Assembly (NCBI GenBank): GCA_964565345.1
Contig: CAZMEQ010000007.1
Span: forward strand, 1 to 46,166
Direction of reading: 5' to 3'
Length of the DNA stretch: 46,166 nucleotides
Source of the DNA: an uncultured Gammaproteobacteria bacterium
Lineage (GTDB): Bacteria > Patescibacteriota > Patescibacteriia > UBA11705 > JABHMO01
In this document: piece after piece, positions 16,356 to 36,607 of the stretch
How positions within the stretch are numbered: position 1 is the stretch's first letter
How the letters are laid out: every line of letters begins with the position of its first letter
Made by a program: the position numbers and the translations under genes
Notes under the pieces: model-generated
Databases searched by the model: none
Told to the model about the DNA's origin: nothing
The model's input: the letters and a program-made list of their open reading frames with translations, nothing else

Positions 16356-17302
16356 CCTCCTATCCGGCTGTTCTGGAAAAAATAAAATTAAGTTATAACA
16401 TCTTAATTATTTGCCACGAAAATCCTGACCCAGACACAATTGGAGCTGGTGGCGCGCTTCTTTATTACATAGAAGAAACTTATCCTTCTAAAAATGTCTT
16501 AATGGCCAGCGTCGATGCTTTACCACAGGATCTTTTTTTTCTCGGTATTCAAAAATTTTCTTCGGCCCTAGAAAATATTGATTTAAATAAATTTGATTTG
16601 GTAATTGCTGTTGATTGTGGCGAGCCACGAAGGACTGGAATACACCAAAAACTGGAGCTCATCAAAGATAAAATTTGTTTAATCAATATTGACCATCACG
16701 ACTCCAATAAAGGCTTCGGCGACATTAATATTGTAGAGATTGTTTCTTCGACTTGTGAAATTATTTATCGCCTTTTAAAATCACAAGGCATTACCATCAA
16801 TAAAAAGATTAGCACCTGTTTGTTGACTGGACTTACCTTCGATACTGCTTACTTCACTAATTCCGGAACAACTAAGGAATCGTTGGCCATTGCTTCAGAG
16901 CTTATGATGACAGCCGCGGATATTCGCTCCATTGTGCGCCACACTTTGAAAAATAAGACTAGAGACACGCTAAGACTGTGGGGCGAAGTTCTTAATCAAA
17001 TACATTACAACAGTAAATATCAAATTGCAGTAGCCGTTATTCCCAAAAACACTGAAATAAGTTCCGAGGTTTTTGATGACTTAAAAAATTATTATCTCCA
17101 ATATCTGCAAGAAGCAAAATTCATTATTGTTTTGCGTGAAGCTGCTGATGGTAAAATACATTGCAGTCTGCGCACCACCAGAAACGAGGTTAATGTGGCA
17201 AAATTAGCTGAAAAATTTGGTGGCGGTGGACACATTAAGTCGGCTGGCTTTTCCTTCTTTGGATCTCTTGAAAAAACAGCCACTGGTTGGCGCGTAAAAT
17301 AA
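16352..17302 (+). CDS. nrnA: DHH/DHHA1 phosphoesterase (nanoRNase/pAp phosphatase)
   Basis: HENPDPD, VDCG, IDHH and GGGH motifs. Confidence 0.85.
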   Translation: MTSYPAVLEKIKLSYNILIICHENPDPDTIGAGGALLYYIEETYPSKNVLMASVDALPQDLFFLGIQKFSSALENIDLNKFDLVIAVDCGEPRRTGIHQKLELIKDKICLINIDHHDSNKGFGDINIVEIVSSTCEIIYRLLKSQGITINKKISTCLLTGLTFDTAYFTNSGTTKESLAIASELMMTAADIRSIVRHTLKNKTRDTLRLWGEVLNQIHYNSKYQIAVAVIPKNTEISSEVFDDLKNYYLQYLQEAKFIIVLREAADGKIHCSLRTTRNEVNVAKLAEKFGGGGHIKSAGFSFFGSLEKTATGWRVK

Positions 17303-17387
17303 AAATGTACGGCCGCACGTGCGTGCGTAGGGACGGGTCACGACCCGGCCCTACAATGCAAATGCATTGTCCGTACATTTTTTATTT
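17298..17387. repeat. Composite palindromic repeat, copy 1 (four-way junction with central GTAG...CTAC hairpin)
   Basis: AAAAATGTACGG/CCGTACATTTTT outer stem, GCACG/CGTGC arm, GTAGGG.CGGGTC/GACCCG.CCCTAC arm, AATGC/GCATT arm. Homologous to 41709-41800. Confidence 0.85.
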
Positions 17388-17393
17388 GAAGCC

Positions 17394-19913
17394 TTACTTT
17401 TCCTCTGCTTCTTGGACCAGCGAGATACTGGCCACCTTATCGCCTGCGGCACGTAACCGCATCAATCGGACACCCTGGGTGTCACGGCCTAAAACGCTAA
17501 TGCTCTTAAATGGCAAACGAATTACTTGGCCTTTTTCCGAAATCACAATTACATCTTGATCAGAGCGTTCGCCCGCATCAACCATAAAGCCATTAACAAC
17601 CTTGCCTGTTTTGGCAGAAACTTTAGCCGTTCTAACACCGCTACCACCACGATTTTGTACTTTATAATATTTTAATTCACTGCGCTTACCATAACCCAAT
17701 TCAGTAATAACTAAAACTTGAAGATTTTTATTACTTGGATCAATAATACCCATACCCACAACTTCACCCTTACCTTTTATTTTGATACCACGAACGCCAG
17801 AGGCAGAGCGTCCCATTGGGCGAACCGCAGATTCTTTAAAGCGAATTGATTGGCCATTGTCTGTTATTAAACTAATTTCCTGCTTACCATTAGTTGCACC
17901 AACCCAACGCAATTTATCATCGCTCTTCAATTTAATTGCGATTAAGCCAGAACGACGGACATTAGAAAAATCTTCAATCGGCGTTTTCTTTATTACACCC
18001 TTCTCTGTAACCATTACTAGATTTTTTATTTCCGTAAGACTGTCAGAAGCCAACACAGTTGATACTTTTTCTAATTGCCCCAATTGAAGGAAATTTACTA
18101 GCGCTTGTCCTTTAGCCGTTCTAGACGCAACTGGGATATCGTACGCCTTCAAAAGAAATACTCGCCCTAAAGTCGTAAAGAACATTAAATCATTATGAGT
18201 CATGGTGCTAAAAAACTGTTCAACTACATCTTCTTCTTTTGTGGTTAGCCCAATAACCCCCTTGCCACCTCGTTTTTGTGCTTTAAAGGTATCAATTGGC
18301 ATTCTCTTAATATAACCATCCTTAGTGATGATGACTAACGTTGGTTCGTTTGGCACTAAATCCTCCTGGGAAAATTCACCAACAGCACCCTTGATAATTT
18401 TTGTACGCCGTTCGTCGCCAAACTTATCACGGATATCTTCTAGCTCTTCTTTTATTACACCTAGAATCTTCTTTTCTGATGCTAACAAGGCATTAAGATC
18501 CTTAATAATCTGCTGTTTTTCTTTTAATTCATTATCAATTTTGAGTTTCTCTAAGTTTGCTAGGTTTTGTAGTCGCATTTCAAGAATAGCCACGGCCTGA
18601 ACCTCAGTAAATTTAAATTTCTTCATTAAATTTTGCTTTGCTTCTTCTCTGTCCTTAGATTGCTTAATAATTTTAATAACCGCATCGATGTTGTCGATTG
18701 CTTTTTGCAAACCCTCTAAAATATGTGCTCGTTCGGCTGCTTTGCGCAATTCATATTCAGCTCGACGTCGTACTACTTCCTGACGATGTTTAACAAAATA
18801 AACGATAATGTCTTTTATATTTAAAACACGTGGCTGCAAACCATCAACCAAAGCCAACATATTTACATCGAAGTTAGACTGTAATTGAGTCAACTTAAAT
18901 AAACGATTCAAAACTTTTTTCGGGTATGCTTCTCGTTTTAAGTCAATCACAATTCGCACTCCATCTTTATCTGATTCATCACGGACATCACGGATACCTT
19001 CTAACTTTTTCAATTTAACTAACTCGGCGATTTTTTCTAACAAAGCAGCCTTGTTTATTTGATAAGGGACTTCATTAACAATAATTTGAAAATTGCCGGC
19101 TTTATTCTCAACGATATCAGTCTTAGCCCGCATGACAATCTTCCCCTTACCAGTTGTATAGGCCTGCTTAATTTCTTCAGCATTATAAATGATACCTCCA
19201 GTTGGGAAGTCTGGACCAGGAATAATTTTGATCAATTCTTCGATTTCGCAATCCGGATTTTCAATATAATGCACAATACCATTACACAACTCAGTTAAGT
19301 TATGTGGTGGAATCTTTGTTGCCATACCAACAGCAATACCCATGGTACCACTTAGCAACAAGTTAGGGAGTTTTGATGGAAGAACCTTGGGCTCTTTATG
19401 CGAACCATCATAGTTTGGGATAAAATCAACCGTATCTTTTTCTAAATCAAAAAGCATTTCTTCGGCAATTGCAGACAACTTTGCTTCCGTATAACGCATA
19501 GCAGCTGCTCCATCACCATCCATAGACCCAAAGTTACCTTGGCCATTAACGAGTGGGTAACGCATCGAAAAATTTTGTGCCATACGCACCATACTGTCAT
19601 AAACAGCCTGATCTCCATGAGGATGATATTTACCTAACACCTCACCGACAACAGTCGCTGATTTTCGGTATTTAGCATTAGCCTTTAACCCCACGTTCCA
19701 CATTGCATAAAGAATACGGCGATGCACTGGTTTCAAGCCATCTCTAACATCTGGTAAGGCACGAGCCACAATTACAGACATGGCATAATCAATGTAGCTG
19801 CTTTGCATTTCGTCCACAATAGAAACCCCACGTACCTTATCGTGTGATTCATCTTTGGGATCGTTATTCTCATTCTTGCTAATTGGTTTTCGGATCAATT
19901 TTCTTGCTTTCAT
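17394..19913 (-). CDS. gyrA: DNA gyrase subunit A
   Basis: [29 protein letters not shown] catalytic Tyr, GyrA-box QKRGGKG and beta-pinwheel repeats. Confidence 0.98.
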
Positions 19914-20403: not shown

Positions 20404-21063
20404 TTATTCTTTTTCTAATATTATTAATTTTGTTTCTTCTGAAGGTAAATCCTTTTTCTGAAACTTGAATTTGGCCATTTTTTCTCCATTAGATCCCATT
20501 TCCTTACAAAAAGCATCAACGCCCTTGATGTCAATATTCAAGCCCGGCACCTTATAGTGCATAGGAATCACAATGCGCGGTTCTATTTGACGAACTACTT
20601 CCGCTGCTTCCTTAGCATCTAACGTCCAGGTCCCACCAACAGGGATCAACAAAACATCAACCTCACCAATTTTTTCTAATTGAGCTTCAGATAATGTTGT
20701 TGCTAAATCACCACAATGTAATATACATAAATCATCTGTCTCTATTTTGTACATTGTTGATTTACCAAATTTTGCCCCCTCTTCTTTATCATGATAACAA
20801 CCAATTCCAGTAACAAACATCCCACGGAATTCATACTCGCCCGGCCTATCAACAACAAAAGGCGGCTTATTTTCCATGCCAATAATCCCTTCCACATAAT
20901 TATGATCATGATGGTCATGACTAACAGTAACTATATCCGCTTTAGTTTTAGGTAATCGCAACCCAGTTTCTTTATCATACGGGTCTGTCACCAGCACAAC
21001 AGGCACTCCATTAATTTTTTCTTCAATTTCGAAGCACGAATGTCCTAACGAGGTAATGTTCAT
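20404..21063 (-). CDS. Metallo-beta-lactamase-fold hydrolase (short Zn-dependent hydrolase)
   Basis: MNITSLGHSCF start, TDPY, SHDHHDH, HCGDL, IPVGG and IPMHY motifs. ATG at 21063 is preferred over the track start at 21111. Confidence 0.85.
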   Translation of the reverse strand: MNITSLGHSCFEIEEKINGVPVVLVTDPYDKETGLRLPKTKADIVTVSHDHHDHNYVEGIIGMENKPPFVVDRPGEYEFRGMFVTGIGCYHDKEEGAKFGKSTMYKIETDDLCILHCGDLATTLSEAQLEKIGEVDVLLIPVGGTWTLDAKEAAEVVRQIEPRIVIPMHYKVPGLNIDIKGVDAFCKEMGSNGEKMAKFKFQKKDLPSEETKLIILEKE

Positions 21064-21244
21064 ATCTATATTATAAATTATGAGTAAAGAAGAAAGAAGT
21101 ACGAAAGTCACAAAGTCAAACCGCCAATTATTTTCTATTCATTATCCTCTATTCCCTATTATTTTACATTAACTTGAATCGTATCTAAGCAAGACAATTT
21201 TATCATCTTTTATATAATAAGTAAACGCAAATCTGGGCTTAATC

Positions 21245-21273
21245 TTGACAAATTACAACTTTCCTAATAATAT
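21245..21273 (+). promoter_or_regulatory. sigma70-type promoter of rpsA
   Basis: TTGACA, 17 nt, TAATAT. Confidence 0.6.
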
Positions 21274-21328
21274 TTAGTTGCAGATTAACCATAGTTGATC
21301 TGACATTTTTGAAAGGAGTCATTTAACA

Positions 21329-22468
21329 ATGACTAAACAAATAGATTGGAAGACAACCGAGATGGGTAAACTCTTGGAGTCAGACCAAACTTTAAGCACT
21401 TTCCCAAACGTAGGAGATATCGTTACCGGCAATGTTATCACTGCTTCTAAAAAAGAAGTTTTAATCGACATTAAAGGTGTTTTAACTGGTATTATCCGCG
21501 GCAAGGAACTTTACAATGAATCAGAGGAGTTTTCTAACTTAAAGCCAGGAGATGAAGTCGAAGCCACTGTCATGGATACTGAAAATGAACAAGGCTGGCT
21601 CGAACTTTCTTTCCGTTTTGCTGGGCATCAAAAAGCCTGGTCAACATTACAAGCTTATAAAGAAGAAAACAAAACTGTTTTGGCCAGAATTAACGATGCT
21701 AACAAGGGTGGCTTACTGGTTACCGTTGCTAACATCCATGGCTTTTTACCAGTTTCTCAACTCAGTCCAGAGTATTATCCTCGTGTCCAAGGCGGAGATA
21801 AAAACAAAATTTTGGAAAAATTAAAGACCTATGTGGGCCAAGACTTTAAAGTAAAAGTACTTGATGCTGACGAGGAGTCTGAAAAGTTAATTGTTTCCGA
21901 AAAAACCGCTTGGGAAGAAGAGCAAAAAGATGTTCTTAACAAGTATAAGGTAGGCGACGTAATTGAAGGTTCAATTACAGCTGTTACTGACTTTGGTGTT
22001 TTCGTAGAATTTGGCGAAAACCTAGAGGGTCTTATCCATATTTCTGAATTAGCTTGGCAAAGGATCGACGATCCACGCGAATTATTTGATGTAAATCAAA
22101 AAATTCAAGCTGAGATAATCAAAATCGATGGTTCCAAAATATTCTTATCAAGCAAAAAATTGAAAGAAGATCCCTGGAAAGATATCGAAAAGAAGTATAA
22201 GATTAATGACTACGTAGAGGGTACAGTCATTAAAACAACACCATTTGGTCTCTTTGTTGAACTAGACAAGGACATCCACGGTTTAGCACATATCTCTGAA
22301 TTATCGGAAAAAACAATTTCCAATATCGAAGATTTCTGCAAGCCAGGTGAAGTTTTAAAATTCCGTATCGTCTCAATCGAACCACAAGAACATCGTTTAG
22401 GTCTTAGCTTAAAACCTCTTGAAGAAAAGAAAGAAAAAGAAGAAAAGTCCGAAGAAAAAGCTGAATAA
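21329..22468 (+). CDS. rpsA: 30S ribosomal protein S1, short form
   Basis: Repeated S1 domains (GDVIEG.IT.VTDFGVFV..GLIHISEL; TPFGLFV..GLAHISEL). Confidence 0.9.
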   Translation: MTKQIDWKTTEMGKLLESDQTLSTFPNVGDIVTGNVITASKKEVLIDIKGVLTGIIRGKELYNESEEFSNLKPGDEVEATVMDTENEQGWLELSFRFAGHQKAWSTLQAYKEENKTVLARINDANKGGLLVTVANIHGFLPVSQLSPEYYPRVQGGDKNKILEKLKTYVGQDFKVKVLDADEESEKLIVSEKTAWEEEQKDVLNKYKVGDVIEGSITAVTDFGVFVEFGENLEGLIHISELAWQRIDDPRELFDVNQKIQAEIIKIDGSKIFLSSKKLKEDPWKDIEKKYKINDYVEGTVIKTTPFGLFVELDKDIHGLAHISELSEKTISNIEDFCKPGEVLKFRIVSIEPQEHRLGLSLKPLEEKKEKEEKSEEKAE

Positions 22469-22480
22469 GCGTTCTATATC

Positions 22481-22510
22481 AAAGATCCAGTCGCAAGACT
22501 GGATTTTTGT
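22481..22510 (+). terminator. Intrinsic terminator after rpsA
   Basis: ATCCAGTC-GCAA-GACTGGAT stem with GNRA loop, then a T-run. Confidence 0.8.
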
Positions 22511-22512
22511 TT

Positions 22513-22548
22513 AAAAAAATCGCCCCCACACCGGTGTAGTGTAGGGGC
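22513..22548 (-). terminator. Terminator of the high-GC cassette gene
   Basis: GCCCC/GGGGC closing stem followed by a T7 run on the minus strand. Confidence 0.5.
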
Positions 22549-22563
22549 TGGAACGCGTCGTAG

Positions 22564-22797
22564 CTAGAACTTGACCCAGACCTCGAGACGGGTCGCGCCT
22601 CTGATCTCCGCCTGCGACGGAATGCTCGTGGGGAAGGAGATGTCCTGCTCGGAGCCACGGACGTAGCCCTGCTCCTCGAAGTAGGTACGGGCCTTGTCCA
22701 GCGAGATGCAGTGGATCTCCATGGCCACGGCGGTGATGATGAGCCGAACGGTGTCCTCGGTACACACGAGGACTGCGACTTCCTTGGGCTTCGCCAT
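22564..22797 (-). CDS. High-GC hypothetical protein (77 aa)
   Basis: AGGAGG 8 nt before ATG 22797, strongly G/C-ending codons, own promoter and terminator. Confidence 0.75.
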   Translation of the reverse strand: MAKPKEVAVLVCTEDTVRLIITAVAMEIHCISLDKARTYFEEQGYVRGSEQDISFPTSIPSQAEIRGATRLEVWVKF

Positions 22798-22832
22798 GAT
22801 CAATTCCTCCTGGTTGATGGCTAGAACTTAAC

Positions 22833-22861
22833 AATCTAGCAATTTAATCTAAATTTGTCAA
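22833..22861 (-). promoter_or_regulatory. sigma70-type promoter of the high-GC cassette
   Basis: TTGACA (22861-22856), 17 nt, TGc TAGATT. Confidence 0.65.
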
Positions 22862-22872
22862 TATTTTAACCC

Positions 22873-22901
22873 TTGCAAAAAAGTTAATCTCGTGCTATAT
22901 T
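22873..22901 (+). promoter_or_regulatory. sigma70-type promoter upstream of rny
   Basis: TTGCAA, 17 nt, TGc TATATT, back-to-back with the cassette promoter. Confidence 0.6.
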
Positions 22902-22928
22902 TCAATTACGTAAGTTAATAAATAAACT

Positions 22929-23111
22929 GTTTCCTGTTGTGTCTGACTTTTTGCGGAATCTGAAAATTTTGACTAAACTTAGCGTATCTAAGTCATAGCG
23001 AAACGAATATCATCTTAATATTAGACCAATTTTCAACGATTCTTCATCTCGCCTAATCTGGCAGAGCTTTATTTGGTCTACTCCGTAAAAAACTAATCTC
23101 ACAGCAGGGAC
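22929..23111 (+). ncRNA. Candidate ~180-nt structured RNA or leader upstream of rny (6S-like size and position)
   Basis: Closing stems TTCCTGTTGTG/CACAGCAGGGA and TTTTTGCGGA/TCCGTAAAAA with G-U pairs valid on the + strand; inner stem TAGACCAAT/ATTTGGTCTA. Confidence 0.45.
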
Positions 23112-23121
23112 AATGTAGCAT

Positions 23122-24642
23122 ATGTTGTACTCTATTATTGTTGCTGTTATTGCAATTCTAGTAGGTGGTTTTGTAGGTTATTTAGTACGCAAAAAAGTAG
23201 CCCAGTCCGAAGCCAATTCTGTCGAAGCTAAAATGCAAAACACCATAGAAGAGGCAAAAACCAAAGAGCGAGAAATTCTTTTACAAGCCAAAGATAAAGC
23301 GCTTACAATCATTGACCAAGCCAAGAAAGAAGAAGAAGTCCGCCGTCAGGAATTAAAAGAACAGCAAAAAAGACTCGAAAAACGAGAAAGTTTGTTCGAT
23401 CAAAAACTTCTAGACCTGGAATCAAAACAAACTAAAATTTTGGAAAAGGCTAAACAGCTCGAAACTGTTAAACAAGAAATTAATGACATTAAAACCCAAC
23501 AACTAGAAAAACTCGAAAAAATTGCGCAAATGAATAAACAAGATGCGCAAGATGTTTTATTAAAAAATGTCCAAGTTGAGATGGAAGATTCTTTAATGAG
23601 TCGTATCCGAAAAATTGAAGAAGAAAATAGCACTCTAATCGATGAAAAAGCGCGTGTCAAATTGGTTCAAGCCATACAACGCTGCGCTGTATCACATGCG
23701 GTAGAAGCCACCACCACCATGGTTGACCTCCCTTCCGAAGAGATGAAGGGTCGTATTATTGGACGCGAAGGTCGTAACATTAAAACCTTAGAGCAATTAA
23801 TTGGCGTGGAAATTGTGGTTGACGACACTCCCCAAGTTATCACTATCTCTGGATTTAGCCCAATTCGCCGCCATGTTTGTAAACGAACTCTAGAAAAATT
23901 AATTCTAGATGGACGCATTCACCCAGCAAAAATTGAAGACGCTATTGAAGAATCTAAAAAAGAAATCGCCGTGGAAATCAAGAAAGCGGGAGAAGACGCT
24001 TGTTATGAATTAGGCATTGCTGGCCTTGATCCAAAACTCGTTCAAATTATTGGTCGTTTAAAATACCGCACCAGCTATGGTCAGAATGTTTTACAACACA
24101 GCATGGAAGTAGCACATCTTTCTGCCATGTTGGCTGAAGAGTTGGGGGCTAACGTGACCATCGCCAAAAAGGGCGGCTTTCTACATGACATTGGTAAAGC
24201 TGTGGACCACGAAATACAAGGCACTCACCCAGAAATCGGCCGCGATATTGCTAAAAAATTCAATTTGCCAGACGAAATTATTCAACCAATTTTAACGCAC
24301 CACGAAGATAATCCAACCACTTTAGAAGCTGTCATCGTTAAAATCGCAGATGCCATTTCTGGTGCACGTCCAGGGGCACGAAAAGACACTTATGAACGCT
24401 ACATCCAACGTTTAGAAGAATTAGAATCAATCGCCACTCGCGAAGAAGGTGTAGAAAAAGCTTATGCTATTCAAGCCGGCCGCGAAGTTCGTGTCTTTGT
24501 GACTCCAGATAAATTATCTGATTTACAGGCACACGAAAAAGCAAAATTAATTGCTAAAAATATTGAAAGCGAACTCAGATATCCTGGTGAAATTAAAGTT
24601 ACTGTGATTCGCGAAAATAGAATTGTTGAATACGCGAGATAA
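23122..24642 (+). CDS. rny: Ribonuclease Y
   Basis: N-terminal TM, coiled coil, KH motif GRIIGREG, HD motif LHDIGK, C-terminal [12 protein letters not shown]. Confidence 0.97.
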   Translation: MLYSIIVAVIAILVGGFVGYLVRKKVAQSEANSVEAKMQNTIEEAKTKEREILLQAKDKALTIIDQAKKEEEVRRQELKEQQKRLEKRESLFDQKLLDLESKQTKILEKAKQLETVKQEINDIKTQQLEKLEKIAQMNKQDAQDVLLKNVQVEMEDSLMSRIRKIEEENSTLIDEKARVKLVQAIQRCAVSHAVEATTTMVDLPSEEMKGRIIGREGRNIKTLEQLIGVEIVVDDTPQVITISGFSPIRRHVCKRTLEKLILDGRIHPAKIEDAIEESKKEIAVEIKKAGEDACYELGIAGLDPKLVQIIGRLKYRTSYGQNVLQHSMEVAHLSAMLAEELGANVTIAKKGGFLHDIGKAVDHEIQGTHPEIGRDIAKKFNLPDEIIQPILTHHEDNPTTLEAVIVKIADAISGARPGARKDTYERYIQRLEELESIATREEGVEKAYAIQAGREVRVFVTPDKLSDLQAHEKAKLIAKNIESELRYPGEIKVTVIRENRIVEYAR

Positions 24643-24647
24643 ACTTC
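24531..24647 (+). repeat. 117-bp perfect direct repeat, copy 1 (rny 3' end)
   Basis: Identical base-for-base to 25936-26052. Confidence 0.97.
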
Positions 24648-24651
24648 TGTT

Positions 24652-24685
24652 AAAAAAACTCAGAACGATCGTTCTGAGTTTTTTT
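24652..24685. terminator. Terminator after rny copy 1
   Basis: AAAAAAACTCAGAAC-GATC-GTTCTGAGTTTTTTT palindrome, usable in both directions. Confidence 0.8.
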
Positions 24686-24747
24686 GTATTTTTACAAGAT
24701 AATTATCAATGAAAAATGTTCCTACTTAATAAAAAAAATTGCGGAAT

Positions 24748-25809
24748 CTATGCTGCTAATTCTCTTTCATAATATGCCCTTGATTGCTTAGCACTTTCTA
24801 CACTACTATTTATGCATTCTCTCAGCGTCTTTTCTAGAGCATCAACATCTGCGCTAGCATCAACGAAATAAGGATGTTTTTTCTCGGCTGGCACAGTTGC
24901 ATTTAAATATCCAAAAGGTGTTTCAGTAATATTATCATCAACACGTTTTGCTTCTTGCCTCAATGTTGGGATTAATGCTAGTAAAGCTTCGACTGTTTTT
25001 CTGCCATCTACATCGGCGATACCAATAGCAGATAATTTTTTATAATCAACGTTACCCGTTTTATCAATTATTCCCGCGGCTCTAGGTTCAGCTCTTAGCG
25101 CTTCTGCCATTATGTTCGTAAACTCACCCTTAGCCTTTACTGCAGCCTGATACCCCTCGTTATTAGAAGCAGCTAAAGGATCTCGCACATCTTTTAACTT
25201 TTGCAGTAACTCCGTTCTTCGTTTTTGTAATTCCTCAGCTCTTGATTGATACTTTGCTTTCATTTCTGCAGACCCCATTTCTGCGACTATGTTTCCAGGT
25301 AACAAAGAAGCTCTCAATTTATCTAATACTTTACCCAAACCAGAAGCTGCTGGCTTTCCCTCCATTTCTCTCTTTAGCGCAATGGCTTCCGCCGGTGACT
25401 TTGGACCTGCCAAAGCAAGACCCTCCCAACGTGGGATACTAACTCCAGCCGCCTCGGAATTGTCTGCTGTAAATCTCGCGTTCAATTGATTTAATGCTAC
25501 ATTTAATTCATTCTCTGCGGCAGTGAGCATTCTTTCATTTTCCTGCTTTTTGGCTTCATGTTGCTCCGCACCTTTTGAGTGATCAATTACATCTCGTGCC
25601 GCATCAAACTTACTGTCTACTTCGTGGTTACGCAGTAATCGCTCCCCCTCATTAATGATTTCATCACAACGGAATTGTTCTGCCTTCATTTTCATCTCTC
25701 TTTCACTAGGTGGCTTAGACGTCTCCTTGCCAATCGGTTTTGTTTCGACAGTTACCACCTCCTCTTTTTTATCACTACCCGGTGGAGTCCCCTCAAGTTT
25801 CATTGTCAT
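24748..25809 (-). CDS. Hypothetical helical/coiled-coil protein (353 aa), cargo of the rny insert
   Basis: Long ORF, charged and Ala-rich, no signal peptide or recognisable motif. Confidence 0.8.
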   Translation of the reverse strand: MTMKLEGTPPGSDKKEEVVTVETKPIGKETSKPPSEREMKMKAEQFRCDEIINEGERLLRNHEVDSKFDAARDVIDHSKGAEQHEAKKQENERMLTAAENELNVALNQLNARFTADNSEAAGVSIPRWEGLALAGPKSPAEAIALKREMEGKPAASGLGKVLDKLRASLLPGNIVAEMGSAEMKAKYQSRAEELQKRRTELLQKLKDVRDPLAASNNEGYQAAVKAKGEFTNIMAEALRAEPRAAGIIDKTGNVDYKKLSAIGIADVDGRKTVEALLALIPTLRQEAKRVDDNITETPFGYLNATVPAEKKHPYFVDASADVDALEKTLRECINSSVESAKQSRAYYERELAA

Positions 25810-25935
25810 AAAACAAAATTAAGCAACTAATTATAATGTTTCACTCTTATATTCTATCCTATTTTTTCCGTATACACAATAAACTGGTCAAGTTAGACAC
25901 AATGATAAGCTTTTTAAATAGTCCCCCTCATAAGG

Positions 25936-26052
25936 ACACGAAAAAGCAAAATTAATTGCTAAAAATATTGAAAGCGAACTCAGATATCCTGGTGAAATTA
26001 AAGTTACTGTGATTCGCGAAAATAGAATTGTTGAATACGCGAGATAAACTTC
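25936..26052 (+). repeat. 117-bp perfect direct repeat, copy 2 (orphan rny 3' end)
   Basis: Re-encodes [36 protein letters not shown] with no upstream frame. Confidence 0.97.
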
Positions 26053-26057
26053 AATCG

Positions 26058-26096
26058 ACTGTCACCCTTCGGTAAACTCAGGGTGACAGTTTTTTT
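26058..26096 (+). terminator. Terminator after rny copy 2
   Basis: ACTGTCACCCT/AGGGTGACAGT 11-bp stem followed by a T-run. Confidence 0.8.
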
Positions 26097-26097
26097 A

Positions 26098-26136
26098 TAA
26101 AAAACAACGCCTCCGTCCCGATGTGGGGAGGAGGCG
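26098..26136 (-). terminator. Terminator of the high-GC cassette gene
   Basis: CGCCTCC.TCCC/GGGA.GGAGGCG stem then TTGTTTTTT on the minus strand. Confidence 0.6.
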
Positions 26137-26144
26137 GAAAGAGG

Positions 26145-26624
26145 CTAGGCCGGCGCGAGCATGAAGTTGCCTCTGTGGTAGGCCCCGTTTTTATAATCGC
26201 CTACGGCGATCACTATGGATTTCGGCAATGGGAGGATGGACACGAGGCGAAGTATGCCGGAAGGATCGCGCACGAAGCCGAGATTGTACTTGTCCAGAAA
26301 GACGGACTCGAACTCTGGACTGGAGTGTGCGGACTGTGCGAGAGCCAACATCTGACGCAGAGTCAGTGGCTTGTAGCTGGTGCTAAGGGATTTGAAATTC
26401 GTGTCAATACGCAGCGACACGGCCCTGACTTCGAAACCCGTTTCCGGACCGAAGTTCATGGCCCCGAAGACGTCCTCCATTTCGAGAGTACGCCCAGGCC
26501 CATCCTGGTGCCCGATGTGGAGCCCAAGCGGGACAGGCCGCGTGGGGGAAAAACTCGTCAAACTTACGGCTGGAGTGGGTGGGACCTGCAGTACTTTTTC
26601 GATGTACGGTGACCGCCGAGCCAT
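26145..26624 (-). CDS. High-GC hypothetical protein (159 aa)
   Basis: ATG with GGGG upstream; own promoter and terminator favour this frame over the two + strand ORFs. Confidence 0.7.
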   Translation of the reverse strand: MARRSPYIEKVLQVPPTPAVSLTSFSPTRPVPLGLHIGHQDGPGRTLEMEDVFGAMNFGPETGFEVRAVSLRIDTNFKSLSTSYKPLTLRQMLALAQSAHSSPEFESVFLDKYNLGFVRDPSGILRLVSILPLPKSIVIAVGDYKNGAYHRGNFMLAPA

Positions 26625-26666
26625 ACTAAACCCCGAGATGGTTTAACGTCCTGTGTCGGACTGACT

Positions 26667-26695
26667 ACGATACCAAATTTATCGTTAAATGTCAA
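26667..26695 (-). promoter_or_regulatory. sigma70-type promoter of the high-GC cassette
   Basis: TTGACA (26695-26690), 17 nt, TGg TATCGT. Confidence 0.6.
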
Positions 26696-26791
26696 TCCTA
26701 GCCAAATCTAACTATCTTATGTAATCAAGATAATATACATAAACTTTTGCCTTATTTTAGTCTTTTTGCTATACTTAGCTAATAAATCAAT

Positions 26792-27598
26792 ATGTCACAA
26801 ATCAAGGTATTATTTTTTGGTGATATCATGGGCAAAATTGGTAGGAATGCCCTAAAAAAAGCTTTACCAGAACTAAAAGAAAAGTATAAGCCCGATTTAG
26901 TAATTGCCAACGCCGAAAATCTAGCACATGGCAAGGGCGTGACTGAAAAGACTTTAGAAGAAATGATGGAAGCTGGCGTTGATTTTTTTACTTCCGGTAA
27001 TCATGTTTGGAGCAATGCCGAAGCCGAACAAATATTCCAGAAAAATAAATTACCAATTATCCGTCCAGCCAACTATCCACCAGGCCTACCAGGCGATGGC
27101 TATAAAATTATTGAAGTCGGTACCAAAAAAATTCTTATTGCCAACCTTATGGGAAGACACTTAATGCTTAAAGAAGATTTTGACTGCCCTTTTAGAGCCA
27201 TGGAAAATATTTTAGATCAACATAAAAACCAAAAAATAGTTGCTATATTAGTTGATTTTCATGCCGAAGCGAGTTCGGAAAAGACCTGCTTCCCCAGATA
27301 CTTTGACGGACGAATAAGTGCTGTTTGGGGAACGCATACACATGTTCAAACAGCAGATGAACAAATTCTGCCACTTGGCACAGCTATGATTTCTGATGTT
27401 GGAATGTGCGGTTTAAAACACTCTAGCCTAGGCATCGAACTCTCTGATGCCTACCGAAAATTTTTATACCAAGTGCCAGTAGAACATAACATCCCTGACC
27501 ATGGTATTTGCCAAATAAATGGAATTTTTGTTATAATTAAGCCAGAAAATGGAAGTGCCAAAAAAATTGAACGAATTAATTTTGCAGTCGAAGTTTAA
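26792..27598 (+). CDS. ymdB: YmdB/TIGR00282-type metallophosphoesterase
   Basis: GDIMG, NAEN, SGNH, DFHAE and GTHTH motifs; the usual partner downstream of rny. Confidence 0.9.
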   Translation: MSQIKVLFFGDIMGKIGRNALKKALPELKEKYKPDLVIANAENLAHGKGVTEKTLEEMMEAGVDFFTSGNHVWSNAEAEQIFQKNKLPIIRPANYPPGLPGDGYKIIEVGTKKILIANLMGRHLMLKEDFDCPFRAMENILDQHKNQKIVAILVDFHAEASSEKTCFPRYFDGRISAVWGTHTHVQTADEQILPLGTAMISDVGMCGLKHSSLGIELSDAYRKFLYQVPVEHNIPDHGICQINGIFVIIKPENGSAKKIERINFAVEV

Positions 27599-27629
27599 CT
27601 TTAAAATAATAATAACTAAATCGACACTT

Positions 27630-27926
27630 ATGAATAAAGCAGAATTAGCCAGCGTTATCGCGGACAAGTGTAATGTAACTAAAAAACAAGCCGAGGATAT
27701 GCTAGACTGCTTAACTGGTATTATTATCGATACCATAAAAGCTGGGGGCGAGGTTACTTTAACTGGATTCGGAACATTTTCTGCGCGTGTACGCAAAGGC
27801 AGAGAGGGCGTAAACCCACAAAAACCAGCCGAAAAAATTACAATTCCACCTACAAAGGTAGTAAAATTCAAGGCCGGCAAAACATTAAAAGACTCTTTAA
27901 AAGCTAGCCAAAACGCCAACATTTAA
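27630..27926 (+). CDS. hup: DNA-binding protein HU
   Basis: MNKAEL...LTGFGTF..R.R..R.G.NPQ...I.IP...V.KFKAGK.LK. True start is ATG 27630, not the track start. Confidence 0.95.
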   Translation: MNKAELASVIADKCNVTKKQAEDMLDCLTGIIIDTIKAGGEVTLTGFGTFSARVRKGREGVNPQKPAEKITIPPTKVVKFKAGKTLKDSLKASQNANI

Positions 27927-27936
27927 AATTATTTTA

Positions 27937-27972
27937 AAACGCGCCCACTTTTACGAGGGCGCGTTTGTTTTT
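27937..27972 (+). terminator. Terminator after hup
   Basis: AAACGCGCCC/GGGCGCGTTT stem followed by a T-rich tail. Confidence 0.75.
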
Positions 27973-28002
27973 CACTAGCTTTTAAGTTATAATAAAGAAA
28001 AT

Positions 28003-28506
28003 ATGGAAAATAAATTTGAACCAAACTGGCAAGAACATCTCGATGATTTAGAAAGCTTGTATCATCCTGATAATTTTTTCTTTAACCAAAAAATTCGCCC
28101 GAATCAACTGACGAACATACGAGAAAGCTTTGCCCCCCTCACCCTTATGGATGAGACTGAAATCCCAGAAGAAGGGCAACTCGCAGTTGACATATTTATG
28201 GATCAAGAAAATATTTATGTTCTGTCTCCCATTGCTGGGACCCAAATTGATAAGCTGGAAATCAGCTTAGACAAAGACATCTTAACCATAAGAGGTACAC
28301 GACAAGAAGATTTGAATCATCCCAACAAAGAATATATATATCGTGAATGTTATTGGGGACATTTTTCCAGAAGTATTGTTTTGCCCCTGCCCGTGCAAGC
28401 GGATAAAGTAACCGCTGAATTCAAAAGTGGTGTTTTAAAAGTAACTCTTCCCAAAGCACCAGAAGGAAGTAAAGTAAATATAAATGTAACAAGTATAGAC
28501 GAATAA
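28003..28506 (+). CDS. Hsp20/alpha-crystallin small heat-shock protein
   Basis: EGQLAVD, LTIRG.R, ECYWG.F.RSI.LP and A.FKSGVL.VTLPK motifs. Confidence 0.9.
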   Translation: MENKFEPNWQEHLDDLESLYHPDNFFFNQKIRPNQLTNIRESFAPLTLMDETEIPEEGQLAVDIFMDQENIYVLSPIAGTQIDKLEISLDKDILTIRGTRQEDLNHPNKEYIYRECYWGHFSRSIVLPLPVQADKVTAEFKSGVLKVTLPKAPEGSKVNINVTSIDE

Positions 28507-28727: not shown

Positions 28728-30675
28728 TATGTCCGAAATGCCCACGGAAGTCGTTAAGGCTTCAAAATTCTGGCGCATCTTGTTTACAAGTATCATTGCC
28801 GTTGTTACACTCACCTTCCTAGTTGCAGGGGTGATTTTTGTTTTGATGTATAATCACAAAAACACAATTCACGCTGGCGTAAAAATCGAAAGCGTAAGCC
28901 TCGGTGGCCTTACCAAAACACAGGCCAAAGATATTCTTTCTGGACAGGTAAAATTAGCCTTTGGTAATGGATACCAATTCAAAAGCAATGCAACAGAAAG
29001 AACAATTAACGATACCGAAAGAAAAATTTTTGATTTAAATTATGACAATAATATTGAACAGGCTTTCAACTTGGGACGCAATGGATCTCTTTTACAAAAC
29101 AGCTGGAACATCCTAAGTGCTGCAGTGTTAGGTAAGACTATAAAAGCTGATTATTATTTAGACAAGGATCTCCTAAAAAATAAGCTCCAAGAAGAATTTA
29201 AAGCTTTTGAAAAACCAAGCCAAGATGCCGATTTAGAAATTAATATTTTAAACAGTGAAGCGAAAAAATTCGAAATTATTTTGAAGCCTTCTACCACCGG
29301 AGGACTAACTTACGATTACAACTCCGCTATAAATGAATTAGAAAAAAATTTGCTCTCCTTTAATAATACGCCCGTAGTCCTAAATGAAAAAAATGACACT
29401 CCACATATTGATACAGTAGCAGCCGAAAAGCTAAAGCCAGAACTGGAAAAATTGATATCGCAAACACAGGAAATAAAACTTATTCACAAAGACATCGTAG
29501 AAACAATTAATTGGGTGGATCTTACTTCCTGGTTTCATATCGGTTTAAACGACCAAGAAGAACCGTCAATTATTCTAGATGAAACAATTGTGAAAGGACA
29601 GCTTATAGCCCTAGCCCAACGAATAAACAAAAATCCGGTCAATGCAAAACTACAAATGAAAGACAGCAAGGTAACTGAATTCCAAGCCAGCCAAACAGGA
29701 TTAGAACTTGATATTGATGCCAGTTACGCTGCGATAAAAACAGCCCTTTTTCAAGACGCTACAAATACGATTAACGTTGTTGTAAAAGAAGCGCAACCAG
29801 AAGTCGCCTTAAAAGATATTAATGGCCTTGGTATTAAAGAAATAATCGGCAGTGGTTCGTCCGACTTTTCGGGCAGCCCCAATAATAGACGGGTGAATAT
29901 TGGAGTTGGAGCAGCTTCGGTGCACGGAGTACTGATTGCGCCTAATGAGGAGTTTTCTTTGGTAAAAGTTTTAGGAGACGTTGATGCAAAAAATGGTTAT
30001 TTACCCGAACTAGTAATTAAAGAAAATAAAACCATACCAGAATATGGAGGTGGATTATGCCAAATCGCGACTACAGTATTTCGGGCTGCGCTTGATGCCG
30101 GCCTTAAAATTACTGAACGTGCGAATCACTCCTACCGAGTTGTTTATTATGAGCCCGCTGGGACTGACGCAACTATTTATATTCCAAAACCAGATGTTCG
30201 CTTTATTAATGACACACAAAATTACATTTTGTTTCAATCAACCTTAAAAGGGAATACTTTAACTTTTGATGTTTGGGGTGCATCAGATGGACGCCAAATA
30301 ACTTTCGAGGGGCAAAATAAAACAGATAACATAAAAGATTTACAACCAAAAATATTTAATATCACAGTACCAGGCCCAGCCAAAGAAATTGAGACCACTG
30401 AATTAAAACCAGGTGAACGTAAACGCACAGAAACAGCGCATAACGGAGCCGATACTTCATTTTCCAGAACCGTTACCTTTGCTGATGGCAAAACAGAAAC
30501 TGTTACTTGGAAAAGTCATTACGTCCCTTGGCAAGCGGTATACTTAATCGGAGTGGATCCAGCAAAAAAAGAAGCTGAAGCTAAGGCAGCCGAAGAAGCA
30601 GCTAATCCACCAATAGCACCAGATCCTAATGCTCCACCAGTAATGCCAGAATTGCCACCAGCTTTACCAGAATAA
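28720..30675 (+). CDS. VanW-family protein with N-terminal TM, putative peptidoglycan-binding repeats and Pro-rich tail
   Basis: FSLVKVLG, YGGGLCQIATTVFRAAL, ER.NHSY and G.DATIY motifs of the VanW domain. Confidence 0.85.
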   Translation: MNNMSEMPTEVVKASKFWRILFTSIIAVVTLTFLVAGVIFVLMYNHKNTIHAGVKIESVSLGGLTKTQAKDILSGQVKLAFGNGYQFKSNATERTINDTERKIFDLNYDNNIEQAFNLGRNGSLLQNSWNILSAAVLGKTIKADYYLDKDLLKNKLQEEFKAFEKPSQDADLEINILNSEAKKFEIILKPSTTGGLTYDYNSAINELEKNLLSFNNTPVVLNEKNDTPHIDTVAAEKLKPELEKLISQTQEIKLIHKDIVETINWVDLTSWFHIGLNDQEEPSIILDETIVKGQLIALAQRINKNPVNAKLQMKDSKVTEFQASQTGLELDIDASYAAIKTALFQDATNTINVVVKEAQPEVALKDINGLGIKEIIGSGSSDFSGSPNNRRVNIGVGAASVHGVLIAPNEEFSLVKVLGDVDAKNGYLPELVIKENKTIPEYGGGLCQIATTVFRAALDAGLKITERANHSYRVVYYEPAGTDATIYIPKPDVRFINDTQNYILFQSTLKGNTLTFDVWGASDGRQITFEGQNKTDNIKDLQPKIFNITVPGPAKEIETTELKPGERKRTETAHNGADTSFSRTVTFADGKTETVTWKSHYVPWQAVYLIGVDPAKKEAEAKAAEEAANPPIAPDPNAPPVMPELPPALPE

Positions 30676-32422: not shown

Positions 32423-34843
32423 ATGGCTAGAAAAAAAGCACGTCGCTATGAGGAAGTTACCTATTACCGCTTAAGCCCGGAAACCAAGCGCGGGATACTC
32501 ATTGTTTCGTTGTTTGCAATTGCCTTAATCTGCGTTTTAGGCTTTCTAAATTTAGCTGGCATTGCTGGCCTCTATGTTGATTTTGGACTTGGCGTTGCCT
32601 TTGGGTGGGGCCGTTTTTTATTTCCAATTGTTTTACTCGGCTTAGGCTATGTTTTAGCTCGTCCCAACTCATATGAAGTAAATTGGCCCAACTACCTTGG
32701 TATTGGATTATTTATTTTAAGTAGCCATGCATTACTACAACTCACAGCGCCAGAAATAACTTCAGTTAAAATGACTATCAGTGGTTTGGGTGGTGGCTTT
32801 ATAGGTTTTATCTTGACTCATCCACTAGTTGTATATTTAGGCTTTTGGGCATCGCTAATAATTTTAATTGCAATCCTTGTTACTTCGGTTCTACTTATGT
32901 TTAATACCAGCATCGAATCATTAGTTGAAAGATTAAATTTCATGAAATTTATTAGCCCTGTATTCAAACGTCGCGAAGTCAATGATTCTAATGACGAGGA
33001 TGACTCTGAAGACGTTGAAGAACCAAAGGAAGAAGAAAACGAGGAAAAAGAAGAAAAAGTGGAAGAAAACCCAGAAGAAGATGTTCAGGTTGAAGTTGTA
33101 AAAAATCCAGCCAAAGAGATCTTAACAATCAATTCTAAAGGTGCACCAGTACGCAGTGCTCCCAAAAAGAAAATCGATCTACCATTGGATTTATTGGATG
33201 GCAAAAAAAGTAAACCTACAAGCGGAGATATAAAAGTTGGTAGAGAAAAAATCCAAAAAACATTAGAAAATTTCCATATCAACGTAGAGATGGGAGAGGT
33301 TCAAGTCGGACCAACTGTGACTCAATACACTTTTGCTCCAGCTGATGGGGTTAAACTTTCTAGAATTACAGCCTTAAACAATGACCTAGCTCTTGCCTTA
33401 GCAGCCCACCCCGTAAGAATCGAAGCCCCTATTCCAGGGAAATCCTTAGTAGGGATTGAAGTACCAAACACCAAACCAGCCATAGTCCGTATGCGCGAAA
33501 CACTTGAATCTGATGCCTTTATGCACCGCAAATCAAATCTAGAAATTCCACTCGGCAAAGACGTCAGTGGTAAAGTTTGGACCGCTAATATCGCTAGCAT
33601 GCCACACTTATTGGTTGCTGGTGCCACGGGCTCTGGTAAATCTGTTTGTTTAAATTCAATAATTGTTAGTCTGTTATATCAAAACAACACTGATACTCTA
33701 CGCATGATTCTAGTTGACCCTAAACGTGTAGAATTCCCAGTGTATAATGGTATCCCTCACCTTTTAGTTCCCGTTATCACCGATGTTACTAAAACAGTAA
33801 ACGCCTTACGTTGGGCCATTGGTGAAATGGATAGACGTTTTGATGAACTGGCTAAATATAAGAAGCGTAATATTGAAAGTTACAACTACTCAGCGCGCGA
33901 AAAAATGCCTTATATCGTCATCGTTGTCGATGAATTAGCCGATCTTATGATTGCTGCTGCAGCAGAGGTGGAGGCCTGTATAGTTCGTTTGGTTCAAATG
34001 GCGCGCGCTGTGGGCATACACTTAATTGTGGCCACACAACGCCCATCTGTAGATGTTATTACTGGTTTAATCAAAGCTAATATTCCTTGCCGCATTGCTT
34101 TTAGCGTTACCTCTCTTATGGACTCTAGAACCATTTTAGATTCTTCGGGTGCGGAAAAATTAGTGGGCAAAGGCGACATGCTTTATATGTCTAACAGCAC
34201 ACCCAAACCAAGACGTATGCAGGGCGCTTATTTATCGGATGAGGAAATAAAGAATGTAGTTGATTATCTTAAAAAAGAAGCAGACGAACCAGAATACTTA
34301 GAAGAAATAACTGATAAGCCAAAAAACAGCAACGGTTCTAGTTTTGATTATAATTCTGGGAGTGGTGATGATGATCTTTTTGATGAGGCCAAACAAACTG
34401 TAATTATGGCTGGAAAAGCATCAACTTCATACCTCCAAAGACGCCTACGCATTGGCTATGCACGAGCCGCACGTCTTATTGATCTACTTGAAGAAGCTGG
34501 AGTTATTGGGCCGGGCGATGGAGCTAAACCACGAGAGATTTTAGTTGATAAAAGATCAGCTCTGATGGGGCCGCCGCTACAAACGACGAAATTAGACAAC
34601 AAAGAGATTGAAGATTATTCAGAAAATCCTTTTTCTCTTGAAGAAGAAAAAGAGCCAGACGTGATTGATGATAACAATATAGATAATCAGCCTATATTAG
34701 ATAATGATCCCGAGGAATCAGAAGAATTATTGCCTGAGGAAATCGATGAAAACGAGGAAGAAATTGCTGAAACAGAAATAGAAGATGAAATACCCTCCAC
34801 TAAAGCCAAACAGAAAAATGATGAACCTGATGAAATATACTAA
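32423..34843 (+). CDS. ftsK: DNA translocase FtsK/SpoIIIE
   Basis: N-terminal 4-TM region, AGATGSGKS Walker A, VVDELAD, ATQRPS, gamma domain STSYLQRRLRIGYARAAR. Confidence 0.97.
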   Translation: MARKKARRYEEVTYYRLSPETKRGILIVSLFAIALICVLGFLNLAGIAGLYVDFGLGVAFGWGRFLFPIVLLGLGYVLARPNSYEVNWPNYLGIGLFILSSHALLQLTAPEITSVKMTISGLGGGFIGFILTHPLVVYLGFWASLIILIAILVTSVLLMFNTSIESLVERLNFMKFISPVFKRREVNDSNDEDDSEDVEEPKEEENEEKEEKVEENPEEDVQVEVVKNPAKEILTINSKGAPVRSAPKKKIDLPLDLLDGKKSKPTSGDIKVGREKIQKTLENFHINVEMGEVQVGPTVTQYTFAPADGVKLSRITALNNDLALALAAHPVRIEAPIPGKSLVGIEVPNTKPAIVRMRETLESDAFMHRKSNLEIPLGKDVSGKVWTANIASMPHLLVAGATGSGKSVCLNSIIVSLLYQNNTDTLRMILVDPKRVEFPVYNGIPHLLVPVITDVTKTVNALRWAIGEMDRRFDELAKYKKRNIESYNYSAREKMPYIVIVVDELADLMIAAAAEVEACIVRLVQMARAVGIHLIVATQRPSVDVITGLIKANIPCRIAFSVTSLMDSRTILDSSGAEKLVGKGDMLYMSNSTPKPRRMQGAYLSDEEIKNVVDYLKKEADEPEYLEEITDKPKNSNGSSFDYNSGSGDDDLFDEAKQTVIMAGKASTSYLQRRLRIGYARAARLIDLLEEAGVIGPGDGAKPREILVDKRSALMGPPLQTTKLDNKEIEDYSENPFSLEEEKEPDVIDDNNIDNQPILDNDPEESEELLPEEIDENEEEIAETEIEDEIPSTKAKQKNDEPDEIY

Positions 34844-34845
34844 GT

Positions 34846-35532: not shown

Positions 35533-35575
35533 TCGCCCCAAAAAATTTCCATGCTTATTTTTTTGAGGCCCGTAT

Positions 35576-36607
35576 ATGCCAAAAACAAGTGAAAAAAATG
35601 AAACTACTGAAGTTCGCGTTTCAGCCGCCAATGATGCGATCCAACAAATTAGAGAAAAATTTGGTGATGGCTCAATTATGCGATTAGGTGAAGCTTCTGC
35701 CATGAATGTTGAAGCCATCTCCACTGGCTGTATTTCTTTGGATCTAGCCTTAGGTGTGGGCGGAGTTCCCCGTGGACGCATTATTGAAATCTTCGGCCCG
35801 GAATCTTCGGGTAAAACAACCTTAGCCCAACATGTTGTAGCCGAAGTCCAAAAAAATCATGGTATTGCTGCTTTTATTGATGCCGAACATGCCTTAGATC
35901 CAGACTATGCCAAAAAAATCGGCATTGATATCAATCAAATGCTTATCTCTCAGCCCGATACTGGAGAACAGGCATTGGAAATCGTAGAAACACTAGTACG
36001 ATCCAATGGAATTGATTTAATTGTGGTTGACTCTGTTGCTGCTTTGACTCCAAGGGCAGAAATTGAAGGCGAAATGGGCGATCAACACATGGGTTTGCAA
36101 GCCCGCCTCATGAGTCAAGCTTTAAGAAAATTAGCAGCTATAATTGGAAAGACCAAAACCACTTTAATATTCATTAATCAAACACGACAAAAAATAGGTG
36201 TTTTCTTTGGCAATCCAGAAACAACGACTGGTGGCACAGCTTTAAAATTTTACAGCTCCGTTCGTATCGAAGTCCGCCGTGCAGCCCAAATTAAAAAGGG
36301 CGAAAATACTATCGGGAATCGAGTAAAAGTAAAGATCGTTAAAAACAAAGTTGCCCCTCCATTCCAGGCCTGCGAATTTGATATTATGTACAACGAAGGC
36401 ATTTCCTTGGCCGGAGACTTGATTGATGTGGGTGTTGATTTTGGCGTAATAAAGAAATCAGGCAATTCATATTTGTATGGGGAAGAAAAACTAGGTGTCG
36501 GGCGAGAAACCGCCAAACAATACCTACGTGAAAATAAAAAGACGGCTGAAAAGATACGCAAGGAAATTATCACTATTAACGAAGAACGAAAAAAGAACGC
36601 GGAATAA
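35576..36607 (+). CDS. recA: Recombinase A
   Basis: [30 protein letters not shown] and [11 protein letters not shown] motifs. Confidence 0.99.

Follow-up and report, generated by a model that had tools for sequence, protein, structure and literature searches.

The interval between rny and ymdB was analysed on contig CAZMEQ010000007.1 of an uncultured bacterium (assembly GCA_964565345.1), within a stretch of 46,166 nucleotides read on the forward strand and referred to here as the window. The RNase Y encoded by rny puts the contig in the Patescibacteria (candidate phyla radiation, CPR), and the genome has a GC content of 38.6%. In this interval a segment bearing a single gene, ORF353, is enclosed by two identical copies of the 3' end of rny. 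The locus is made up as follows, where L081, L088 and similar handles denote loci of related genomes.

23122..24642, plus strand: rny, encoding RNase Y (506 aa; Pfam RNase_Y_N, KH_1 and HD), intact, its 3' end forming repeat copy 1.
24531..24647, plus strand: repeat copy 1 (R1), with ancestral context on its left, the side from which the alignments of L081 and L088 enter it.
24651..24686, both strands: T1, bidirectional intrinsic terminator, the leftmost feature of the insert (perfect 16-bp stem; -18.8 and -18.0 kcal/mol, z -4.7 and -4.9).
24748..25809, minus strand: ORF353, the sole cargo gene, 353 aa, convergent with rny.
25810..25935, minus strand: the 126-bp region upstream of ORF353, right end of the unique insert, with a perfect TATAAT at 25830-25835 (minus strand), 20 nt before the ATG.
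25936..26052, plus strand: repeat copy 2 (R2), a non-coding orphan of the rny 3' end with ancestral context on its right, L081 and L088 aligning from 25932 on.
26057..26096, plus strand: T2, the terminator after copy 2 (-20.1 kcal/mol, z -5.2).
26099..26136, minus strand: terminator of the p159 gene, a CGCCTCC...GGAGGCG hairpin kept in relatives.
26145..26624, minus strand: p159, a resident GC-rich gene (third-codon-position GC, GC3, of 0.69) outside the insert, with homologues at the same place in relatives.
26792..27598, plus strand: ymdB (Pfam YmdB, 5e-94), right border of the variable interval.

The two repeat copies are identical at 117 of 117 positions (24531-24647 and 25936-26052) and their starts lie 1405 bp apart. 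Self-BLAST of the whole window found this to be its sole long exact repeat, and in 1.14 Mb of related loci the runner-up exact direct repeat measured 99 bp and was not tied to any gene end. A sequence-only reading of the same DNA had described a perfect 117-bp duplication of the rny end with this spacing, and the comparison agrees with it in all but one detail: the 37 codons it counted are one too many, the repeat comprising 36 full codons and the stop codon, preceded by 1 nt of codon 470 and followed by 5 nt. Both direct repeats thus contain the rny 3' end while rny itself stays full length. The second copy is untranslatable, because an in-frame TAA lies just upstream (25931-25933) and a start codon is absent, and it is probably silent.

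Between the copies lies a unique insert of 1288 bp (24648-25935) that consists of a bidirectional terminator, the 353-aa gene and its promoter region. As had been proposed, each repeat copy is trailed by a different terminator, and the fold z-scores indicate that both are real. T1 is regarded as bidirectional since A and T runs flank its perfect stem. It is absent from the relatives' loci, and exact searches of GTDB genomes with T1 and T2 returned no match. In relatives a terminator occupies the position of T2, right after the rny stop and ahead of the p159-family terminator, and T2 is by inference the original rny terminator. Judged from the sequence, T1 now appears to serve both rny (plus strand) and ORF353 (minus strand), so that rny, unchanged in sequence, would end at T1 and not at T2. 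The region upstream of ORF353 resembles neither the sequence of any relative nor other parts of the window. Neither Rfam, searched at gathering as well as permissive thresholds, nor a scan for tRNA and tmRNA genes gave a relevant match within the insert or close to it. A reading in terms of structured RNA was accordingly rejected, the insert not being targeted to an RNA gene and the GC-rich islands not being known RNAs by these scans.

The hairpin of T2 (26060-26095) was also seen, with one mismatch, amid wholly different flanks in contigs of two sequencing runs, X8 and X5, and is therefore a repeated or mobile hairpin elsewhere in this or another genome. As an exact 30-mer it was absent from GTDB genomes.

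Comparison with relatives identifies the segment between the copies as an insertion. RNase Y is 95% identical to that of the closest assembled relative (P0004; loci L086-L088) and 91% identical to P0005. The nucleotide alignment of L081 falls in two pieces, the first covering window positions 21197-24642 and the second resuming directly at 25932 and running to 30995. Both L081/L082 and L086-L088 are colinear with the window minus the insert; they have a single rny 3' end, lack ORF353 and thus present the unoccupied site. The order in these close relatives is rny, terminator, a GC-rich gene of 159-181 aa and ymdB; in L086-L088 it reads rny, terminator, the conserved hairpin terminator of the p159 family, a p159-family gene of 170 aa and the promoter region of ymdB. 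Synteny of L081 with the window extends over the S1 gene, rny, the p159 homologue, ymdB, HU, Hsp20, DUF3006 and VanW. Each of the identical copies is hence native on one side only, R1 on the left and R2 on the right, and it follows that the 1288 bp between them were inserted.

Two independent assemblies of the closest relative, L086 and L087, both end inside its p170 gene about 570 bp past rny. L086 closes with a long palindrome, apparently a product of assembly and not of biology.

The event is young. No difference separates R1 from R2 (0/117), while the window differs from L088 at 9 of the 117 positions and from other relatives at 16-26. Barring gene conversion, the insertion therefore far postdates the separation from every assembled relative, in agreement with the recent date first suggested by the lack of mismatches.

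Support from public sequencing runs was sought in per-run contigs (Logan) built with k=31, a word length shorter than the 117-bp repeat. Runs X1-X4, X9 and X10 of one wastewater study carry the stretch at about 3-6x, and contigs built independently for each run cover all four junctions. The passage from rny through R1 to T1 is covered by an X2 contig (24447-24681), that from T1 to ORF353 by another X2 contig (24656-24817), and those from the ORF353 upstream region through R2 and T2 to p159 by contigs from X4 (25509-26280) and X3 (25847-25965). Insert and flanks have like depth, about 2.5-5.7x in four runs. The contigs break at the repeat borders (24647 and 25936), as a repeat exceeding k would lead one to expect. 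The mis-assembly that the sequence-only reading had named as fatal, with the copies lacking support in reads, is made less likely by the recovery of every junction, in contigs that do break at the repeat.

The rny-ymdB interval is variable across the clade. Where in most bacteria sampled the two genes are 0-300 bp apart, the interval in these relatives holds anything from nothing to about six genes, which are unrelated and differ in nearly every lineage:

L094: empty (177 bp).
L096: one 145-aa gene.
L081 and L088: a p159-family gene alone.
L089: a 208-aa gene and a p159-family gene.
L092: a 250-aa gene (p250), TrmB and a p159-family gene.
L098: PfkB, AdoHcyase and several small genes.
L006: five genes of unassigned function.

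This differing content supports the earlier designation of rny-ymdB as an insertion hotspot. The same designation had also counted the gene at 26145-26624 (p159) as a second foreign gene, which does not stand: the family adjoins ymdB in five lineages, with 62% identity in L081 (from Joint Genome Institute contigs) and 33-36% in L088, L089, L092 and L098, all at the same position. In each close relative with a gene at this position, that gene is of the p159 family. The idea of p159 as foreign DNA was rejected, and the gene belongs to a resident, fast-evolving family of the clade. No Pfam or PDB match was obtained for p159, its AlphaFold2 (AF2) model has a predicted local distance difference test score (pLDDT) of 35, and a metagenome scan with the p159 alignment gave only the already known contig among the matches listed.

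The window has three GC-rich genes on the minus strand (GC3 0.62-0.88), namely p77 (22564-22797), p159 (26145-26624) and a truncated GGDEF gene (3-620). A strong AGGAGG ribosome-binding site precedes p77. The p77 and p159 families keep their positions on either side of rny in close relatives, with protein identities of 35-62% where RNase Y has 91-95% and with no Pfam or PDB match; they evolve several-fold faster than their neighbours, and p77 and p159 are either very fast-evolving genes or repeatedly replaced alleles.

Repeats of another kind were met at the hotspot in two relatives. In L098 a 31-nt rny terminator is duplicated (94% identity) around the PfkB-AdoHcyase pair, the second copy standing in ancestral context by the p171 terminator, and in L092 two copies of an rny-type terminator (7531-7559 and 9333-9361) bracket p250 and TrmB. 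L098, which is GWC2_38_7, also has the last 10 nt of rny (GCGAGATAAG) repeated three times just past the stop, and a 25-nt exact repeat together with a 12-nt repeat brackets a 3.9-kb segment; these repeat and terminator features lie at 7509-7675, 10236-10266 and 11567-11610 of that locus. The repeats of L098 and L092 may be older insertion scars at the same hotspot.

The cargo gene probably belongs to a rare family. No match to ORF353 was found in Pfam, PHROGs, NCBIfam or PADLOC, no relative was found among 5.8 billion clustered proteins, and comparisons with PDB profiles, phage genomes (tblastn) and viral contigs gave nothing above noise. An exhaustive HMMER search of 1.84 billion representatives recovered one homologue, P0123 (384 aa), with 35% identity over residues 68-330 (E 4e-21). 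The convergent orphan gene described earlier is indeed the single ORF between the copies, and it has this one distant homologue. P0123 is encoded on a 2.2-kb CPR contig from groundwater, where truB and a uvrC-like gene flank it. The motifs GPxxPAEAIALKRExxGKP and FGYLN, which the two proteins share, speak for a real though rare CPR protein family. The GC content of ORF353 by codon position (0.55/0.41/0.31) is similar to that of rny and ymdB, which suggests a donor of similar base composition; together with the sole homologue in another CPR genome, this host-like codon composition points to a donor within the Patescibacteria. The AF2 single-sequence model of ORF353 consists entirely of helices, at a pLDDT of 53 (low confidence). 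A likeness of ORF353 to the 1642-aa ORF of the window (an 18-nt identity; E 0.05) was rejected as chance.

Exact pieces of ORF353 were also present in runs X5 and X6 (two other studies, 2024), and its presence in samples of several studies and years suggests that the gene is at least tolerated. No second copy of ORF353 or of its flanks was found in any collection searched, and in none of them was the gene beside rny elsewhere. On the P0123 contig (L100, 165-2018) a 232-aa gene of unassigned function starts immediately past the P0123 stop; the two may form a two-gene module of which the window holds the first gene only.

No integrase or transposase domain was detected in the insert, in the window ORFs scanned (at least 100 aa) or in the cargo that about a dozen relatives carry at the hotspot. 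The unit therefore encodes no recombinase of its own, such as marks an integrative element, in keeping with the first description of it as too small to do so: the insert is one ORF without a recombinase domain. Likewise, neither the window nor the hotspot of relatives yielded the cognate integrase that would be expected for a cis-mobilizable element (CIME). Terminal inverted repeats are lacking at the insert ends. A transposon is excluded by their absence, by the absence of a transposase and by the length of the repeat, 117 bp being far beyond the target duplications made by transposases, which usually span 2-15 bp.

A duplicate of the rny 3' end was seen in no other of about 110 loci (including 44 CPR loci from GTDB representatives and about 20 loci of close relatives), the metagenome-wide scan for it not being exhaustive. 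It had been proposed that related genomes be inspected for other cargo with the same repeat; none of those compared has it, and the other hotspot cargo is not bounded by it.

Homologous exchange leaves clear traces in this population. A co-occurring strain in run X8 (another study, 2024) is identical to the window over 17013-17776 and 21462-23477 and shows at most one difference per contig over 30550-33365, and it diverges by 2-9% in the blocks 18300-18571, 20404-20736, 23492-28385, 29953-30535 and 33617-35772. One of the divergent blocks opens inside rny near 23490 and covers the hotspot. Such a mosaic of near-identical and divergent blocks implies frequent homologous exchange in the population. 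In X8 nothing at least 90% identical to 24574-26900 was found except the unrelated copy of the T2 hairpin. An X8 contig that seemed to present the empty site, with 24475 joined to 25982, was rejected, its sole match near T2 being a 36-nt hairpin copy in unrelated sequence.

The genes in the remainder of the window are housekeeping genes (IF-2, FtsH, a Mur ligase, RbfA, an S1-domain protein, HU, Hsp20, ClpP, FtsK, RecA, SSB, S6, NusA and YidC), one of which is given here for context only.

35576..36607, plus strand: recA (Pfam RecA, 1.6e-135), whose product the proposed crossover, and a deletion between the repeats, would require.

The homology of 117 bp is long enough for RecA, recA lies in the window, and the strain mosaic shows recombination to be active. 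The excision by RecA that the repeat had been said to allow is thus feasible.

We consider that the insertion arose by a homology-driven single crossover of the Campbell type, with the last 117 bp of rny as the homology, and not through a dedicated integrase, and would give this account a probability of roughly 0.55. The donor would have been circularised DNA from a related strain in which the 117-bp rny end stood next to the cargo gene, and one RecA-mediated crossover would have joined this circle to the chromosome; alternatively, a linear fragment that bridged two sister chromosomes would have led to the same arrangement. The crossover would leave the shared segment on both sides of the insert and place the cassette 5 nt past the rny stop, keeping rny intact and ending at the terminator of the cassette, with the orphan 3' copy pushed downstream in front of the old terminator. 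RecA acting on the same repeats could delete the unit precisely again. Homology-driven insertion is favoured over a fixed attachment (att) core because different events at the hotspot appear to duplicate different segments of the left flank. Taken together, the unit is best read as the product of recombination at a hotspot of gene gain and loss and not as a self-moving element.

There are experimental precedents. During conjugation in Escherichia coli, a single crossover with a circle sharing short homology yields insertions flanked by duplications of 109-950 bp (PMC3240628). The com genes are conserved across the CPR, and natural transformation with homologous recombination has been demonstrated in Saccharibacteria (PMC10633639).

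Several points weigh against this account. Neither a donor molecule nor a donor strain was found in the collections searched, and ORF353 lies beside rny nowhere else in them. Natural transformation imports linear single strands, so that a circular intermediate needs an extra step. A homology of 117 bp is a short substrate for RecA and would make the event rare. For the copies to be perfectly identical, the donor must have had the same rny end, or gene conversion must have followed. The terminator duplications of L098 and L092 are short and could be independent terminators rather than footprints. Finally, the tandem arrangement is drawn from the original assembly and from the finding that in four runs insert and flanks are covered to roughly the same depth, and the k=31 contigs cannot formally separate it from an empty chromosome accompanied by a 1405-bp circle.

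A different origin, unlikely though by no means negligible, is that the unit is a remnant or satellite of a site-specific element, in the manner of a CIME, with the 117-bp rny 3' end as its att core and an integrase that was lost or acts in trans. It has the classical footprint, in that a housekeeping 3' end is held in direct repeats, the gene is restored and relatives have the empty site, and the right border of the repeat falls at a conserved TAAACTTC directly past the rny stop. CIMEs, moreover, have by definition lost their integration and transfer genes and kept attL and attR (PMC5704250). The structure of the unit is compatible with such an element, but nothing marks the repeats as att sites or the unit as derived from an integrative and conjugative element (ICE) or an integrative and mobilizable element (IME). 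An integrase was missing from every place scanned, the repeat was not seen again in the loci compared and does not bound other cargo, and the 1.29-kb unit is a promoter, one ORF and a terminator with no trace of decayed mobility genes. The text of a review of IMEs does not mention rny (PMC5704250). Of the integration into a gene 3' end that restores its target, as first proposed, the insertion that preserves the rny end and the empty site in relatives are borne out; the site-specific part is not, for no integrase was found and the repeat is not reused.

It is a good deal more doubtful that the 1405-bp unit is a minimal, recombinase-free cassette cycling between circle and chromosome via the 117-bp rny end, driven by RecA of the host or by an unlinked integrase. 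On this view the rny stop region would serve Patescibacteria as a dedicated landing pad for the exchange of genes of unassigned function, and the mini-repeats of that region and the duplicated terminators in relatives would be older scars of such exchange.

An accident of replication or repair also seems improbable. Template switching (of the type of fork stalling and template switching, FoSTeS, or microhomology-mediated break-induced replication, MMBIR) could have copied 1.29 kb and re-entered 117 bp upstream, or a fragment could have been captured at a break with 117-nt staggered ends that were then filled in. Either would account for a target duplication around an insertion with neither inverted repeats nor a recombinase, and an imperfect similarity exists at the left junction (...ACAGGC/ACACG against ...ATAAGG/ACACG, with 10 of 20 upstream bases matching). 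The likeness is limited to these 10 bases and an AGG at a 1-nt offset. Template switching and end-joining capture are given lower weight because clean microhomology is found at neither junction. In addition, neither the window nor any database searched yielded a copy of the 1.29 kb that could have been its source, and borders that enclose a functional cassette, from terminator to promoter, come about more easily through selection on a transferred gene than at random switch points.

With still lower probability, the arrangement may be an effect of assembly, in which either an empty chromosome (rny-T2) and a separate 1405-bp circle with one repeat copy, or two strain variants, were threaded through a loop of the graph. 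A de Bruijn graph with k below 117 cannot distinguish a tandem from a circle plus an empty site, and the k=31 contigs break just at the repeat borders. Against this stand the four junctions recovered in several runs and the similar depth of insert and flanks in four samples, which is unexpected for an autonomous small circle, and the unit carries no replication gene. Even so, a molecule joining the ORF353 upstream region to rny codon 470 exists, and recombination through the rny end would stand.

The least credible alternative is that insert and duplication are ancestral to the clade, with copies homogenised by gene conversion and relatives that deleted the insert between the repeats: a single RecA deletion does turn the state of the window into that of the relatives, and presence or absence alone gives no direction, but this would take independent precise losses in L081, L088, L089, L092, L094, L096 and L098 and continuous conversion of a non-coding copy, and ORF353 is absent from those relatives and from 15 billion proteins save for the one 35%-identical homologue elsewhere.

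Gene gain in the ultrasmall, host-dependent Patescibacteria is poorly documented, and this locus offers a sharply bordered case, with both states of the site, empty and occupied, and the exact junctions known. One gene has been added beside an essential-type gene without damage to it, at a hotspot whose content differs in nearly every relative, and a co-occurring strain is a recombination mosaic. The locus is well suited to testing whether CPR bacteria gain genes via homologous recombination after DNA uptake, and it suggests a candidate neutral insertion site for genetic work. The event read by us as a single crossover would be an ordinary case of recombination-driven gene gain, with no new mechanism or class of mobile element.

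Two further features of the window were observed away from the locus. An intergenic element of about 95 nt occurs in two copies (17292-17386 and 41705-41800) that are 78% identical; it has three hairpins closed by a AAAAAATGTACGG/CCGTACATTTTTT stem (fold z -5.1 and -8.9), and the differences between the copies in the central hairpin are compensatory. It matched no Rfam family, and it may represent a family of structured repeats or bidirectional terminators. On the minus strand, 36658-41586 is a 1642-aa ORF without a Pfam domain, in which a stretch of about 290 bp is repeated (37924-38214 and 38272-38562, 72.5% identical).

Among known systems, insertion sequences, miniature inverted-repeat transposable elements and transposons share with the rny unit an insert between direct target duplications, and differ from it in the terminal inverted repeats and transposase that are lacking here. 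The 117-bp repeat is longer than usual att cores, and to our knowledge no ICE, IME or integrase with specificity for the rny end has been described. CIMEs (defined in PMC5704250), such as those at fda in Streptococcus thermophilus, resemble the unit in having a housekeeping 3' end in direct repeats, no integration or transfer genes and an empty site in relatives. Unlike them, the rny unit is far smaller, the other cargo of its hotspot lacks the repeat and a cognate ICE, IME or integrase was not found here.

A partial parallel is offered by the arrays of Rhs, contact-dependent inhibition (CDI) and type VI secretion system (T6SS) genes, whose orphan 3' fragments have been attributed to homology-facilitated illegitimate recombination (PMC5361080). 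There too DNA is anchored in a conserved upstream gene and brings new downstream content, the old 3' end is displaced and untranslated, and the hotspot cargo is strain-specific. In those arrays, however, the incoming 3' end is unlike the displaced one, and the two code for alternative toxin tips accompanied by immunity genes, whereas at rny there is no difference between the copies, the gene encodes a housekeeping RNase and the cargo shows no sign of toxin or immunity functions.

The closest likeness is to the Campbell-type insertion known from suicide plasmids and from spontaneous events in E. coli conjugation (PMC3240628). In both cases foreign DNA stands between perfect direct copies of a shared segment (109-950 bp there, 117 bp here), the target gene remains intact, no dedicated recombinase is involved and the insertion is reversible via the repeats. 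The rny unit differs in being natural, in an uncultivated Patescibacterium, with a hypothetical donor circle and a cargo of a single gene in place of a plasmid.

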